From Escherichia phage PhiR49_2, in the sequence record PV340570.1: a stretch of DNA of 40,988 nt; one strand, given 5' to 3'. Shown here piece after piece: positions 1,401 to 6,110 of this stretch. Each line of letters begins with the position of its first letter. Position 1 is the stretch's first letter. The translations under genes and the position numbers were made by a program. The notes under the pieces are model-generated. The model ran no database searches and was not told the origin of the DNA. It saw only the letters and a list, made by a program, of their open reading frames with translations.

Positions 1401-1637
1401 TCACCTGGGTTGTTTGTTTTTCATTGAGGCGACCCAGGCATCTATTGCTTTTCTGTTATACATACATTCACTGGAAGGCTTTGGATTACCGTCTGGTGAT
1501 ACGTGAATATACTCTCTTCCAACCATCCAGCATTCTTTCCGGGCCCGAAGAATTGTGCCTGGTTTGAGCCCGGTAATTGCGATAAGAACGCTTTCACAAA
1601 CCCATTCATTGGGAGCCAGTTGAATCACATTGCCCAT
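1401..1637 (-). CDS. Small putative DNA-binding protein, possibly excisionase-like
   Basis: 78-aa ORF immediately upstream of int on the same strand; size and position fit an Xis-type recombination directionality factor; no motif I can name with certainty. Confidence 0.4.
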   Translation of the reverse strand: MGNVIQLAPNEWVCESVLIAITGLKPGTILRARKECWMVGREYIHVSPDGNPKPSSECMYNRKAIDAWVASMKNKQPR

Positions 1638-1795
1638 GTATTACCTCACACAACACTCAGCCCACGGCAGTGGCACCACACTTCAAACATTCGCTTCACA
1701 ACTTCACGACAGTAGAAGCCGTCAACATCTCGCGTCAGGTCATAGCGATTGCCGTAACGCTGGTGGACCCATCGTTCAAATGCTTTATTCATTCT

Positions 1796-2038
1796 TTACT
1801 TCCTTTTTATGGCTCGTAATTTTTTCAGGTGCTTTTCCTGCTCAGTGTCCGCGAGAATTTTGCGGTACTCCTGGTGGTCAATATGTTCGAACAGGCAGTT
1901 TAACTCACCAATGCGTACCCGCCCGGATCGTCCGTCCATCCGTCGAAAGAACACTGAGTGCTCAGTGATGCGAGTAATCACCACGGGGTATCCGGCTCTG
2001 TCCGTGTATATCTGACCGCGTTGAATCAAAGCGAACAT
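1796..2038 (-). CDS. Hypothetical protein
   Basis: 80-aa ORF co-oriented with the leftward early operon. Confidence 0.4.
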   Translation of the reverse strand: MFALIQRGQIYTDRAGYPVVITRITEHSVFFRRMDGRSGRVRIGELNCLFEHIDHQEYRKILADTEQEKHLKKLRAIKRK

Positions 2039-2122
2039 GTGGTTATCCCCAGCGGCAAATCGAATACACCATCAGCGTCACCGCCATCGCAATTCCTACC
2101 GTTGTTAATGCTTCAGGCCAGG

Positions 2123-2467
2123 TCATCGTAAAATATCCTCCACGCTTATCAGTCCGTTCCGCTCCAGATAACTCATCGCCTTATCCGGTAATTTGCAGTC
2201 TGGCTTCGCTTTCCTCAGTTGCCAGGTTAACTGCTTTACCAGCATGGTTAACTCATCGACCAGACGCTGATATCCCACTGGTTTGTATTCATGCAATTTA
2301 CCGGCTGGCTCTGCTGCCAGCGATACCAGTGCGATTTCCAGAACAGCAATATCCATCTTATATGTGCGGATGATGTCATGGTCGATTGTACCCGGTATGC
2401 ACAGTCTCTGTGCTTCAATAGTCTCCTCTGCGTGAGCTATTAACTGCTCTCTGGTAAAAGTCGTCAT
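2123..2467 (-). CDS. Hypothetical protein (paralog A)
   Basis: 114-aa ORF; shares N-terminal MTTxTxExL and an IALVSL-AEP segment with the adjacent ORF 2464-2649; start overlaps the neighbour's stop (ATGA-type coupling). Confidence 0.5.
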
Positions 2468-2649
2468 GCCGTAGCCCCTTCTTGATATTTTTCAAACCAG
2501 AACACAACCGGCTCTGCTTCCAGCGATACCAGTGCAATTCGTGCCAGTTCTTCCGCTTCTTCTGCTGGCAGTACAACGTTGCTACCCGGTCCGTATGTTT
2601 CGCGCCACTGCTTGATTGTCAGCAGTCGCTCTTTGGTTATAGTGGTCAT
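2464..2649 (-). CDS. Hypothetical protein (paralog B, shorter)
   Basis: 61-aa ORF; shares motifs with 2123-2467; an ~32-bp near-identical DNA repeat links the two genes (2301-2336 and 2508-2539). Confidence 0.45.
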
Positions 2650-2659
2650 GTGTTACTCC

Positions 2660-2923
2660 TTAACCCGCAGTGCTTTCAACTGATGAGGGGAACAAAATCC
2701 TTTCATCAAATCCGGCATTCATATCATGGACAGCAACACACCAATCCATCGACGAACGATTATCAAGAGCCTCCATGATTTCATCCATGCGGCGCAGGTC
2801 ATACAGGTAAATGCTTTTATCGCCAATGGTGTAAAAACCAATTTTTTTCGGTGATGGGCAGCGATCAAGAACGTCCTGTAATTCGTTCAACCATGCCTGT
2901 TCTTTTTTTGTCAAAGTTGCCAT
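2660..2923 (-). CDS. Hypothetical protein
   Basis: ORF track gives 2660-2998; the internal ATG at 2921-2923 (MATLTKKEQ...) abuts the stop of the upstream ORF at 2925, so the shorter form is the more likely gene. Confidence 0.45.
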   Translation of the reverse strand: MATLTKKEQAWLNELQDVLDRCPSPKKIGFYTIGDKSIYLYDLRRMDEIMEALDNRSSMDWCVAVHDMNAGFDERILFPSSVESTAG

Positions 2924-2924
2924 A

Positions 2925-3954: not shown

Positions 3955-4279
3955 TGGCAGCCTCCTTTGCCGGGATTTCTAACTTTTGAGTGGTTGTATC
4001 AAATTCAAACAACTTAACCACGTCATCAAACAGGACATAATCACCATCAGGATCTTCAGTCATATCTGCGCCACAATCCTGACCGCACGAGTCGCAACCA
4101 TCCATATCAAGCTCGTATCGCTTCAGGTTTGCGATATTTGATAAATTCAGCGCCAGTACAGCCAGGTCATAAACCTCTTCGGCAGTGACATCGCTGTTCA
4201 GTCCCATTTCATGGCGATATATGATTTTTTCTACTCGTTGTTTTGTGATCGTCATTTTTCTCTTCACTCCGATATACAA
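3941..4279 (-). CDS. Hypothetical acidic protein
   Basis: 112-aa ORF; an alternative start at ATG 4253-4255 (MTITKQR...) has a better SD; overlaps the upstream ORF end. Confidence 0.45.
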   Translation of the reverse strand: MYIGVKRKMTITKQRVEKIIYRHEMGLNSDVTAEEVYDLAVLALNLSNIANLKRYELDMDGCDSCGQDCGADMTEDPDGDYVLFDDVVKLFEFDTTTQKLEIPAKEAASEQD

Positions 4280-4526
4280 GGATTACTACACCCCCTCTGC
4301 TGATTGCGCGAGCTGGATCCCCTGGTTCCATGCCGTCAATTCCGAAGGCTTCGGAAAACGCATTCATTGCCTTCTGGCGTTCATCCTGCTTACGGCGTTT
4401 ATTCCATTTTTTCAGGAACAACAGCGACAGCCACCGTCCGCTGCAGAACACGATGTAAAAATAACCAAGGAGCGCCAGGCCGACATTCAGGGCCGTTTCT
4501 ATGGTTAGTTGTGAGTCAGTTGCCAT
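4209..4526 (-). CDS. Hypothetical protein with one predicted transmembrane segment
   Basis: 105 aa; hydrophobic stretch ALNVGLALLGYFYIVFCSG followed by a basic cluster; the 3' end overlaps the next gene by about 50-70 nt, so the true C-terminus is uncertain. Confidence 0.35.
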   Translation of the reverse strand: MATDSQLTIETALNVGLALLGYFYIVFCSGRWLSLLFLKKWNKRRKQDERQKAMNAFSEAFGIDGMEPGDPARAISRGGVVILVYRSEEKNDDHKTTSRKNHISP

Positions 4527-4806
4527 TTCTTACCTGTTTAAGTAACTGGTTGAACATAACACTTAGGGGATTGCTGTATCCAAACGGCAGATTGTTTACG
4601 CAGTACAGAATCATTTTGTTTTTTTCTCCAGTTCGTACTATTAACCCATTCCACAATAACCGTGATAATTCATTACTGATAGAAGTTGCGCTTCTTCCAA
4701 GTGCGAGGGATATATCTTCTCTACTGCAATCTGGATTTTCCTGGATATACTCGATAACGGTCATGTGGTCCCTTTTACTTAATATCTGTTTCGGATTGCA
4801 TGCCAT
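4516..4806 (-). CDS. Putative winged-helix DNA-binding protein
   Basis: 96 aa; the segment …DISLALGRSATSISNELSRLLWNGLIVR… resembles an HTH/winged-helix fold; no named family recognised. Confidence 0.4.
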   Translation of the reverse strand: MACNPKQILSKRDHMTVIEYIQENPDCSREDISLALGRSATSISNELSRLLWNGLIVRTGEKNKMILYCVNNLPFGYSNPLSVMFNQLLKQVRNGN

Positions 4807-5356
4807 GAGTATTCATTTCGTTAATAATTTCATCCAGAAGGATTTCAAGCCCTTCTCGACCCATATCTGAAAGAATGAAACCTTTATCAGGGGAAGTAGT
4901 GAGCATTTTCTGATAAAGAAACAGCGCTCTTCCCATTCCTTCAGCTTCGCCGTATTTTTGAATTAAATTCCATTCAATATACTGTTGTAAGGCAAATCGA
5001 ATGGGGCCGGGATATATCGTCATAAACCCATACATCCCGTTATATACCACGGCGTGTTCAGTTGTTCCGTGTTCATTCAGGATATCAATTGTGCCGTTCT
5101 TGTCTTCTTCTTCGTTGATGAATGTCGTCACATACAACCATCGCCACTGAGCAACCTTCATCTCAACCGGAAGTTTACCCAGTAATCCTGCTTCGTCGGC
5201 TTGCGCCAGACACTGAAGGATACGTAAACCTCGCACATTAGGAGTATCGAATTCTCCGGCATCCAGACGACGTATGGCGTCGTGATAATCAATCGTCATA
5301 CTGCCAGTTCGTATACCATTGGCTGTTGCTTCAGCCTGGAATTCATCGTATTGCAT
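4775..5356 (-). CDS. Hypothetical protein
   Basis: 193-aa ORF with protein-like composition, co-oriented with the early-left operon. Confidence 0.5.
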   Translation of the reverse strand: MQYDEFQAEATANGIRTGSMTIDYHDAIRRLDAGEFDTPNVRGLRILQCLAQADEAGLLGKLPVEMKVAQWRWLYVTTFINEEEDKNGTIDILNEHGTTEHAVVYNGMYGFMTIYPGPIRFALQQYIEWNLIQKYGEAEGMGRALFLYQKMLTTSPDKGFILSDMGREGLEILLDEIINEMNTHGMQSETDIK

Positions 5357-5361
5357 GATAT

Positions 5362-5550
5362 TTATTCCTCATCTTCATCTTCATCTGCTGGTGCAATAAC
5401 GTCATATCCTGCCCTTTCTGCAATAAACAGGAATGTTGAAAGAGTTCCTACAAGTTCATCGTCATGAACATGGCGAATGAATATTACTTTCCCGTTTTTG
5501 ATGGTCAGCAATACTCTGGTTTGTTCGTGTTCTGCTGTTTTCTGATGCAT
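5362..5550 (-). CDS. Hypothetical small acidic protein
   Basis: 62 aa; acidic N-terminus encoded at the 5' end; tightly spaced behind 4775-5356. Confidence 0.4.
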   Translation of the reverse strand: MHQKTAEHEQTRVLLTIKNGKVIFIRHVHDDELVGTLSTFLFIAERAGYDVIAPADEDEDEE

Positions 5551-5744
5551 TATTATCTCCCGTATGCTTTACGCAGAAATAAGCAGGCAATATGCATGTA
5601 ATTTTCACCGTATTGTGCAATAAGGCAGGCGGTCTTGTGTGATGCCATATTCTTTATAAAAGTCACAATAAAGCCTCCTGTGGATTAAGGTTGTAACAAT
5701 CCCCGGCGATAAAACCGCAATAAACGTTCAGGGCATATTTGTTG

Positions 5745-6110
5745 TTATTGCGCTAATTCTTTTTCGGCAGCAGCTTTTGTATACTCACATGCAAAACTCA
5801 GAATTTCGCTGCCGAGTGTTTTCGTTTCGTGATTACTGGACATATGTAATACCTGTGTTGCATGCAATAAATGATAAACATTTACCGCAAATGAATCAGG
5901 CTCCAGACAAATGCCTTCGTAATTATCTTGCTGTGAGGTTGTTTCTGTCATTGCTCCTGAAGTGCATGCGAGCCTGTTTTTGACAATTCTCTTTTCTCTA
6001 ATCACTATATCGGCAACATCTATTGCCTTTACAACCTCCGGGAGAAGTTCCGGGTTTGTATAATCAAAGTCATCAACATGGAGAACAGTTATGTTTTCGA
6101 ACTTTTTCAT
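5745..6110 (-). CDS. Hypothetical protein
   Basis: 121-aa ORF in the early-left operon. Confidence 0.45.
   Translation of the reverse strand: MKKFENITVLHVDDFDYTNPELLPEVVKAIDVADIVIREKRIVKNRLACTSGAMTETTSQQDNYEGICLEPDSFAVNVYHLLHATQVLHMSSNHETKTLGSEILSFACEYTKAAAEKELAQ

Follow-up and report, generated by a model that had tools for sequence, protein, structure and literature searches.

The closest described relatives of the DNA examined here, the left early region of Escherichia phage PhiR49_2 (sequence record PV340570.1), are lambdoid prophages of the phiP27 type. The genome of the Shiga toxin (Stx) 2e phage phiP27 (NC_003356) was reportedly described by Recktenwald and Schmidt in 2002. In lambda, P22 and Rac, recombination genes are located between xis and the immunity region. 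Lambda itself has, in the part of its leftward early (pL) operon nearest to xis, the exo-xis or ea region (ea22, ea8.5, orf60a-orf73), whose small early genes modulate lysogeny, with exo, bet, gam, kil, cIII and N upstream. Ea22 and the exo-xis genes were shown to affect the choice between lysis and lysogeny (PMC7093339, PMC3824215). P27, on the other side, has no orthologue of N, cIII or cII, and many lambdoid regulatory elements could not be identified there (Smith et al. 2012, PMC3430580). We analysed a stretch of 40,988 nucleotides of PhiR49_2 (the window), and in particular positions 1401-6110, which lie between int and the immunity region.

This region very probably constitutes the early operon transcribed leftward in a lambdoid Escherichia coli prophage of the phiP27 type. 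The window opens at the left attachment end of the prophage, with int (32-1345) and xis (1401-1637) both on the minus strand and at the same offsets from the left end as in phiP27; the Xis proteins are 100% identical, as judged by tblastn. The early-left backbone is also of the phiP27 type, including a 121-aa protein (96% identical) and a 193-aa protein (65% identical). phiP27 was the top-scoring phage record (37% DNA coverage, 84.6% identity), followed by yecE prophages and Stx1a/Stx2a phages of O145:H28 E. coli that produce Shiga toxin (STEC). The closest E. coli match to 1401-6900 is a prophage of strain EC190329, with 90% coverage and 98.6% identity, which adjoins yecE. The window begins about 30 bp ahead of the int end, leaving the flanking host DNA outside, and the yecE position is read from this near-identical prophage.

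The other end of the region has the organization of a lambdoid pL. A CI/cro immunity region is found at the right border, and a promoter with repeated operators is predicted in silico after the cI terminator, xis and int being distal:

6869-6841, minus strand: predicted pL-like sigma-70 promoter, TTGACA-17-TAATAT, 10 of 12 consensus matches.
6797-6813, 6818-6834 and 6865-6881, no strand: operator-like ATCAA-N7-TTGAT sites with 0-2 mismatches, the second perfect (inverted-repeat pairs I1 and I11).
6921-6905, minus strand: intrinsic terminator after cI, 7-bp stem with 5 GC pairs and a T run, 12 nt past the cI stop codon.
6933-7628: LexA-like CI repressor with HTH_3 and Peptidase_S24 domains.
7652-7668, 7701-7717 and 7731-7747, no strand: ATCAA-N7-TTGAT-like operator sites between cI and cro.
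7756-8046, divergent from cI: cro-type gene, YdaS/P22_Cro-like (phrog_4).

The 6869-6841 promoter was the top minus-strand match within 1300-8100. A preliminary description of this DNA had placed a pL-like promoter at the 6110 boundary. No promoter reached 9/12 within 6111-6238. With the best candidate at 6869-6841, the operon would start with the helix-turn-helix (HTH) gene 6239-6787, beyond 1401-6110, and include this further gene. Six of the 23 ATCAA-N7-TTGAT matches in the window (41 kb scanned) fall in the two short intergenic regions, and the sites at the promoter and between cI and cro are predicted to form a lambda-like arrangement of left and right operators (OL/OR). Between cI and cro the layout is lambda-like: one of the operator-like sites is overlapped by a PRM-like promoter (7694-7667, 9/12), the remaining two by a weaker PR candidate, TTGATG-17-GTTAAT.

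All open reading frames (ORFs) were scanned against Pfam, PHROGs, NCBIfam and PADLOC; sequence searches of the PDB were added, and AlphaFold models and fold searches were obtained for two proteins, the 193-aa and the 121-aa. Region 1401-6110 is 95.7% coding and carries 16 genes, all on the minus strand, each with a plausible ribosome-binding site and with numerous overlaps of 1-47 nt. They are given below together with the two genes on their promoter side:

1401-1637, minus strand: excisionase, 78 aa (PF06806, 9.5e-33; phrog_539, 5.1e-40).
1646-1792, minus strand: 48-aa protein (phrog_3871, 5.1e-35), 82-98% identical in phiP27, Stx1 phages and EC190329.
1796-2038, minus strand: DUF4222 protein, 80 aa (PF13973, 8.2e-14; phrog_285).
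2123-2467, minus strand: 114-aa protein with an 'MTTxT(K/R)E' N-terminal module (phrog_660, 8.2e-43; cross-hits phrog_5117, phrog_60 and phrog_3323).
2464-2649, minus strand: 61-aa protein with the same module (phrog_60, 6.6e-22; phrog_3323, 1.7e-21), ATGA overlap with the next gene.
2660-2923, minus strand: 87-aa protein starting at Met26 of a 112-aa ORF; phrog_1714 (2.5e-50) covers residues 26-112.
2925-3116, minus strand: 63-aa basic protein (phrog_1380, 4e-38), annotated in EC190329, filling a supposed gap at 2999-3112.
3113-3289, minus strand: 58-aa protein with an arginine-rich C-terminus (phrog_13831, 2.2e-41).
3289-3954, minus strand: Ead/Ea22-like protein, 221 aa (PF13935, 2.6e-33, 115.9 bits, residues 2-134; phrog_250, 1.1e-71).
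3941-4255, minus strand: 104-aa protein with an 'MTITKQ' N-terminal module (phrog_3126, 4.9e-64, from residue 9 of a 112-aa ORF; weak phrog_3323 and phrog_60).
4209-4526, minus strand: DUF4752 protein, 105 aa, one hydrophobic segment (PF15944, 7.2e-37; phrog_667).
4516-4764 (ORF to 4806), minus strand: MarR-like winged-helix protein, 82 aa from Met15 (phrog_1687 'MarR family', 1.3e-24).
4775-5356, minus strand: 193-aa protein of an orphan family.
5362-5550, minus strand: 62-aa acidic-tailed protein (phrog_340, 1.1e-22; weak antirepressor C-terminus matches, phrog_4792, 1.3e-6).
5553-5666, minus strand: 37-codon micro-gene, AGGAGG 7 nt upstream of its GTG start, stop 2 nt before the next gene's ATG.
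5667-5744, no strand: 78-bp intergenic spacer, no promoter or terminator consensus and no Rfam match.
5745-6110, minus strand: 121-aa two-domain protein (phrog_5451, 1.7e-83; AlphaFold2 predicted local distance difference test (pLDDT) 83.5).
6091-6351, plus strand: opposite-strand gene, 86 aa (phrog_6104, 1.4e-49).
6239-6787, minus strand: XRE/Cro-C1-type HTH regulator, 182 aa (PF01381, 5.3e-11; phrog_4836, 2.3e-78; PDB matches to the HTH of P22 C2 and 434 repressor).

The dense minus-strand run of the preliminary description was thus recovered, its count of about 14 ORFs rising to 16 with the overlooked 2925-3116 and 5553-5666. Co-orientation holds for these 16 genes and breaks down at the right edge, where the 121-aa gene is overlapped at its start by the gene 6091-6351 on the plus strand. 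Two starts in the crowded part were supported by translation signals: the ribosome-binding site AAGGAAAA precedes the ATG of the 87-aa gene at 2923, and the 63-aa gene (2925-3116) has an ATG that shares bases with the stop codon ending the 58-aa gene (ATGA). Named family matches in 1401-6110 were restricted to Xis, DUF4222, Ead/Ea22, DUF4752 and MarR-like, the remainder matching only PHROGs lacking known function. The winged-helix candidate noticed earlier is a reasonable one given its PHROG match, though it stays below the curated Pfam thresholds (MarR_2, 22.9 bits for a cut-off of 27; HTH_24, 19.8 for 21.9); the LC567835 annotation holds an 84-aa version of this protein. The DUF4222 protein carries RGQ where RgdR, an activator of the type III secretion system of enterohaemorrhagic E. 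coli, carries an RGD motif (PMC10877973).

Compared with the early-left genes of phiP27 (L02-L10), the window has the same int and xis and the same gene order, and both are without N, cIII and Red. Homologues were found there of the 48-aa, DUF4222, 193-aa, 62-aa, 37-aa (70%, unannotated), 121-aa (L08) and HTH (L10) proteins, and the counterpart of the plus-strand gene is a truncated L09. In contrast, L04 and L05 (lipoprotein or serine protease) replace the Ea22-type block, the DUF4752 gene and the MarR-like gene in phiP27, and the cI immunity is of another type. LC567835 and LC567819, which represent the yecE prophages/Stx1a phages of STEC O145:H28, share the DUF4752, MarR-like, 193-aa, 62-aa and 37-aa proteins at 89-95% identity, and LC567835 has the same cI type (94% identical). 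Both nevertheless differ from the window in their int/xis type (49% identity) and in a 66-aa short hairpin protein which stands directly beside a tandem-HTH regulator, with no opposite-strand gene. Lambda offers a parallel in the position of its exo-xis region and in its Ea22 protein, whereas none of its exo, bet, gam, kil, cIII and N genes was found in the window. Homologues of lambda ea8.5, orf61, orf63 and orf73/TraR were not detected in the window either. The region is a common phiP27-type prophage operon, an ordinary mosaic, and the absence of Red and N functions has already been published for phiP27.

This absence was examined with the searches described above. No Exo, Bet, Gam, RecE/RecT, Erf, Sak, SSB or N was assigned by Pfam, PHROGs, NCBIfam, PADLOC, PDB sequence searches or the two AlphaFold models with their fold searches. 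The preliminary description, which recognized no recombination or antitermination genes, is borne out: the sensitive profile and PDB searches proposed as its refutation remained silent on such functions. Since the interval between xis and the immunity region is the usual site of recombination genes in lambda, P22 and Rac, one could suspect a disguised Red-like module, with the 193-aa or the Ea22-like protein being a divergent single-strand annealing protein (SSAP) or exonuclease, or a small protein acting as a Gam-like RecBCD inhibitor. The conservation of the 193-aa family across genera would fit this view. Only the Ea22-like (221 aa) and 193-aa proteins are long enough for an SSAP or an exonuclease, and no SSAP or nuclease fold was found in proteins big enough to carry one. 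For the 193-aa protein, the AlphaFold model is confident (pLDDT 86, predicted template modelling score 0.81). Its family is mainly found in Escherichia (35 matches in an indexed search, 94 cluster representatives in an exhaustive one), and none of 41 diverse members has a Pfam domain. The sole PDB profile match, ribosomal protein bS6 (1.3e-4), was taken as chance, and on its predicted structure the 193-aa protein appears to be an orphan with no known fold. A divergent recombinase was rejected on the Pfam, PHROGs, NCBIfam and PDB searches together with this model, and we consider a disguised Red-like module most improbable. In the absence of a homologous-recombination module, the phage would rely on host recombination.

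Similarly, no signature of N-type antitermination was observed. The first gene after the promoter encodes the XRE-type HTH regulator, with no N family in Pfam or PHROGs, in place of an N-type gene with a nutL site, and the boxA consensus (YGCTCTTWA) has no match in the window. The arginine-rich 58-aa protein was rejected as an N analogue: the promoter is a long way off, the basic residues are found at the C-terminus, and its PHROG is without known function. The Q antiterminator is found on the right arm (14515-14910). Terminator-like sites on the minus strand inside 1400-6840 have only weak stems of 5-6 bp and are about as frequent as in shuffled sequences (8 compared to 6.0 +/- 2.1). An N function may thus be unnecessary, since the stretch from 6840 to xis has no strong intrinsic terminator on this strand.

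Taken together, these observations suggest the following scheme for the leftward early operon. Upon inactivation of the LexA-like CI repressor (6933-7628), transcription would begin at the CI-controlled promoter 6869-6841 and proceed leftward through the XRE-type HTH gene and then the 16 tightly packed small genes, ending with xis and int, without the need for an N-type antiterminator.

Several points weigh against this scheme and the assignment behind it. The promoter, the operators and the read-through to xis and int are deduced from consensus matches and repeats. ATCAA-N7-TTGAT is not enriched window-wide (23 sites found, 25 expected), so that clustering alone is informative. The opposite-strand gene implies convergent transcription, which could interrupt the simple picture of a single operon. 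Functional names are available for only 3 of the 16 genes in 1401-6110 (Xis, Ea22-like and MarR-like). Finally, a very divergent small analogue of Gam, Kil or CIII may escape sequence profiles.

To get access to the conservation of its parts, the window proteins were compared with nine related loci in a tblastn matrix. A conserved promoter-proximal block emerged, composed of the HTH, plus-strand, 121-aa, 37-aa, 62-aa and 193-aa genes; phiP27, ASU11 and the Stx1 phages have it, and so do Citrobacter and Salmonella prophages at 30-68% identity. This backbone presumably carries early phage functions, including the pair formed by the HTH regulator and its HTH-less paralogue (see below). The variable middle block (114-aa to 104-aa genes) was found, among the nine loci, only in the closest relative. 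Pieces of it occur in 2852 of 5426 complete E. coli genomes, plasmids included, with as many as 12 places in a single genome, and at least 80% of the block occurs in none of the 5426. The promoter-proximal block occurs in 368 genomes and the MarR/193-aa/62-aa block in 203.

The middle block seems to be built from a limited set of modules. Three of its genes, 2123-2467, 2464-2649 and 3941-4255, all on the minus strand, share an N-terminal module ('MTTxT(K/R)E ... LA..AL.SLEAEP') and have unrelated C-termini. PHROG cross-hits (phrog_60, phrog_3323 and phrog_660) tie this module to the Ead/Ea22 superfamily, which points to modular shuffling within Ead/Ea22-related PHROGs. The middle part would have been assembled from such modules recombining freely among E. 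coli prophages.

The Ea22-like coiled-coil protein singled out by the preliminary description was readily confirmed at 3289-3954, the PF13935 score of 115.9 bits standing against a cut-off of 27. As in lambda Ea22, an N-terminal domain is followed by a coiled coil and a C-terminal domain of its own, here with a GFTGCGKS motif. Ea22 proteins end with a C-terminal K/R-G-E (basic-Gly-Glu) motif (PMC7093339); the ending here, KGGE, comes close to it, with one glycine more. The C-terminal domain differs from the solved lambda Ea22 domain, to which no PDB match was obtained. Residues ~140-221 (3289-3540, minus strand) contain the Walker-A-like GFTGCGKS and weakly match kinases and FtsY over their first strand, P-loop and helix. 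As a P-loop nucleoside triphosphatase this domain was not retained, the matches being sub-threshold (APS kinase 0.062, FtsY 0.073) and its ~80 residues too short; the question was left open.

The behaviour of the middle block is typical of accessory genes, mosaic and in multiple copies (2852 genomes, up to 12 places in each, plasmids). Together with the effect of the lambda Ea22 and exo-xis genes on the lysis-lysogeny decision, this could suggest a region that acts chiefly as a reservoir, with genes for anti-defence, exclusion or host takeover and not core early functions. Nevertheless, the PADLOC scan of the ORFs returned only generic HTH and winged-helix matches, so that no defence or anti-defence assignment could be made and no known anti-defence family was recognized, and the six-gene promoter-proximal block behaves as backbone and not as cargo. 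A reservoir in this sense is possible, if doubtful.

EC190329 (positions 5908-6869 of its locus) has a truncated Ea22-like gene and a DUF4752 gene interrupted by a stop codon; the window carries intact copies of both. These lesions in the same region would be expected if it were decaying prophage DNA whose ORFs are no longer under selection. Such decay is very unlikely for the window, where all ORFs are intact and tightly packed, where variation is biased to third codon positions, and whose backbone is also carried by the inducible phages ASU11 and phiP27.

The interval 5551-5744 had been described as a 195-bp non-coding gap that could hold an internal promoter or a small RNA (sRNA). Instead, 114 bp of it are occupied by the 37-codon ORF (5553-5666) and only 78 bp are intergenic. 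Across six aligned loci the frame of this ORF is intact, relatives starting with ATG, and variable columns are distributed 10/4/21 over codon positions 1/2/3. Between the window and phiP27, 30 of 114 positions differ, 17 of them at the third codon position. The peptide is 59-65% identical in Citrobacter and Salmonella prophages (tblastn), where its neighbours differ and it is uncalled; over the phiP27, ASU11, Citrobacter and Salmonella loci the identity ranges from 59 to 70%. The 114-bp coding sequence is annotated in LC567835 and LC567819 and unannotated in the RefSeq, phiP27 and ASU11 records.

A regulatory element, internal promoter or sRNA, in place of a coding sequence could still be argued for, since 5551-5744 is the largest unannotated interval in these RefSeq, phiP27 and ASU11 records and a conserved CGCCGGGGATT block lies within the residual 78 bp. 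The interval as a whole gave no such signal: consensus scans found neither promoter nor terminator, Rfam gave no match at E <= 1 and none at gathering score, and its folding on both strands (z scores of -0.15 and +0.03) was no better than that of shuffled sequence. An sRNA was rejected on these grounds. Conservation is lower in the spacer than in the ORF (relative to the Stx1 phages, 30 differences in 98 nt compared to 8 in 114 nt). With a consensus ribosome-binding site, a frame kept at 30% nucleotide divergence, the codon-position bias and a peptide conserved in other genera despite differing neighbours, the regulatory alternative is unlikely, and most of the gap is, as judged by these sequence comparisons, a conserved protein-coding gene rather than a regulatory RNA. 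A weak promoter may lie in 5667-5744.

The promoter-proximal end of the backbone consists of the HTH regulator, the 86-aa antisense gene and the 121-aa protein. The latter is composed of a small beta/alpha N-domain and a helical-hairpin C-domain, and this hairpin is 43% identical to the N-terminus of the HTH regulator (BLASTP, 9e-10). Four architectures were found in the hairpin family: the full 121-aa form, the hairpin alone (66-68 aa), the hairpin with an HTH, and the full-length form with an HTH, the last corresponding to 211-aa 'XRE family' proteins of Salmonella. The regulators of ASU11 and LC567835 have two tandem HTH domains. These natural fusions with HTH domains argue that the 121-aa protein and the HTH regulator work together.

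At its 5′ end the 86-aa gene shares 20 nt with the start of the 121-aa gene, and at its 3′ end 113 nt with the tail of the HTH gene. In ASU11 the gene is intact and differs at 16/12/36 sites by codon position; it belongs to a family of 84-88-aa proteins (18 clusters) of Escherichia, Salmonella and Citrobacter. Its embedded position is kept beside different cI genes (loci L006-L009), Citrobacter and Salmonella prophages show this arrangement, and it is unannotated in the RefSeq relatives examined. A plus-strand TTGACA-17-CACTAT, a candidate promoter for the 86-aa gene, is located inside the 121-aa gene (5980-6008). Its TTGACA does not vary among five divergent loci, but these bases also encode the conserved VKNR motif.

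One could imagine that the regulator is titrated by its HTH-less 121-aa paralogue, with convergent transcription as a further level of control. In its widest form, this cassette would be an undescribed early switch which replaces N/cIII-type control in phiP27-like phages of Enterobacteriaceae, with the 37-codon gene and the 193-aa protein as further core early functions. We advance this tentatively and think it rather unlikely to hold as a whole.

On the right arm, genes for Rha and Ash-Rha regulators, an O-like initiator, a DnaC-like loader, a DnaB helicase, a DUF968/HNH protein and Q were identified. Rfam matches to isrK (61.2 bits) and C4 antisense RNA (75.1 bits) were obtained at 8916-9101 (plus strand), at the start of the Ash-Rha gene (8859-9707). 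These matches suggest that the early-right region contains an antirepressor module of the P1/P7 type under c4 control. In Stx phages, tRNAs and stx are found downstream of Q. Here, 15381-15906 (plus strand), downstream of Q, holds tRNAs Met-CAT, Arg-TCG and Arg-TCT and an STnc100 sRNA match, and no stx-sized ORF was found ahead of the holin gene at 15973. A 92-aa ORF (15062-15340, plus strand) matches only positions 137-220 of the 221-position N6_N4 DNA methylase family and looks like a truncated methylase gene.

Parts of this mosaic accessory operon occur in about half of the complete E. coli genomes, and its significance is low as it stands. Three items alone exceed routine annotation, and only slightly: the conserved promoter-proximal cassette, which is a modest lead, the 37-codon gene and the 193-aa fold orphan. 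Three results are of practical use. The 37-codon gene is conserved and was overlooked by RefSeq and several phage annotations, and the antisense gene, also conserved and largely unannotated, is embedded between two early genes. The regulator and its HTH-less partner, with their natural fusions, provide a testable hypothesis for early-left control in N-less Stx-related phages. Stx-converting phages belong to this phage type, so its early regulation is relevant to the induction of toxin phages.

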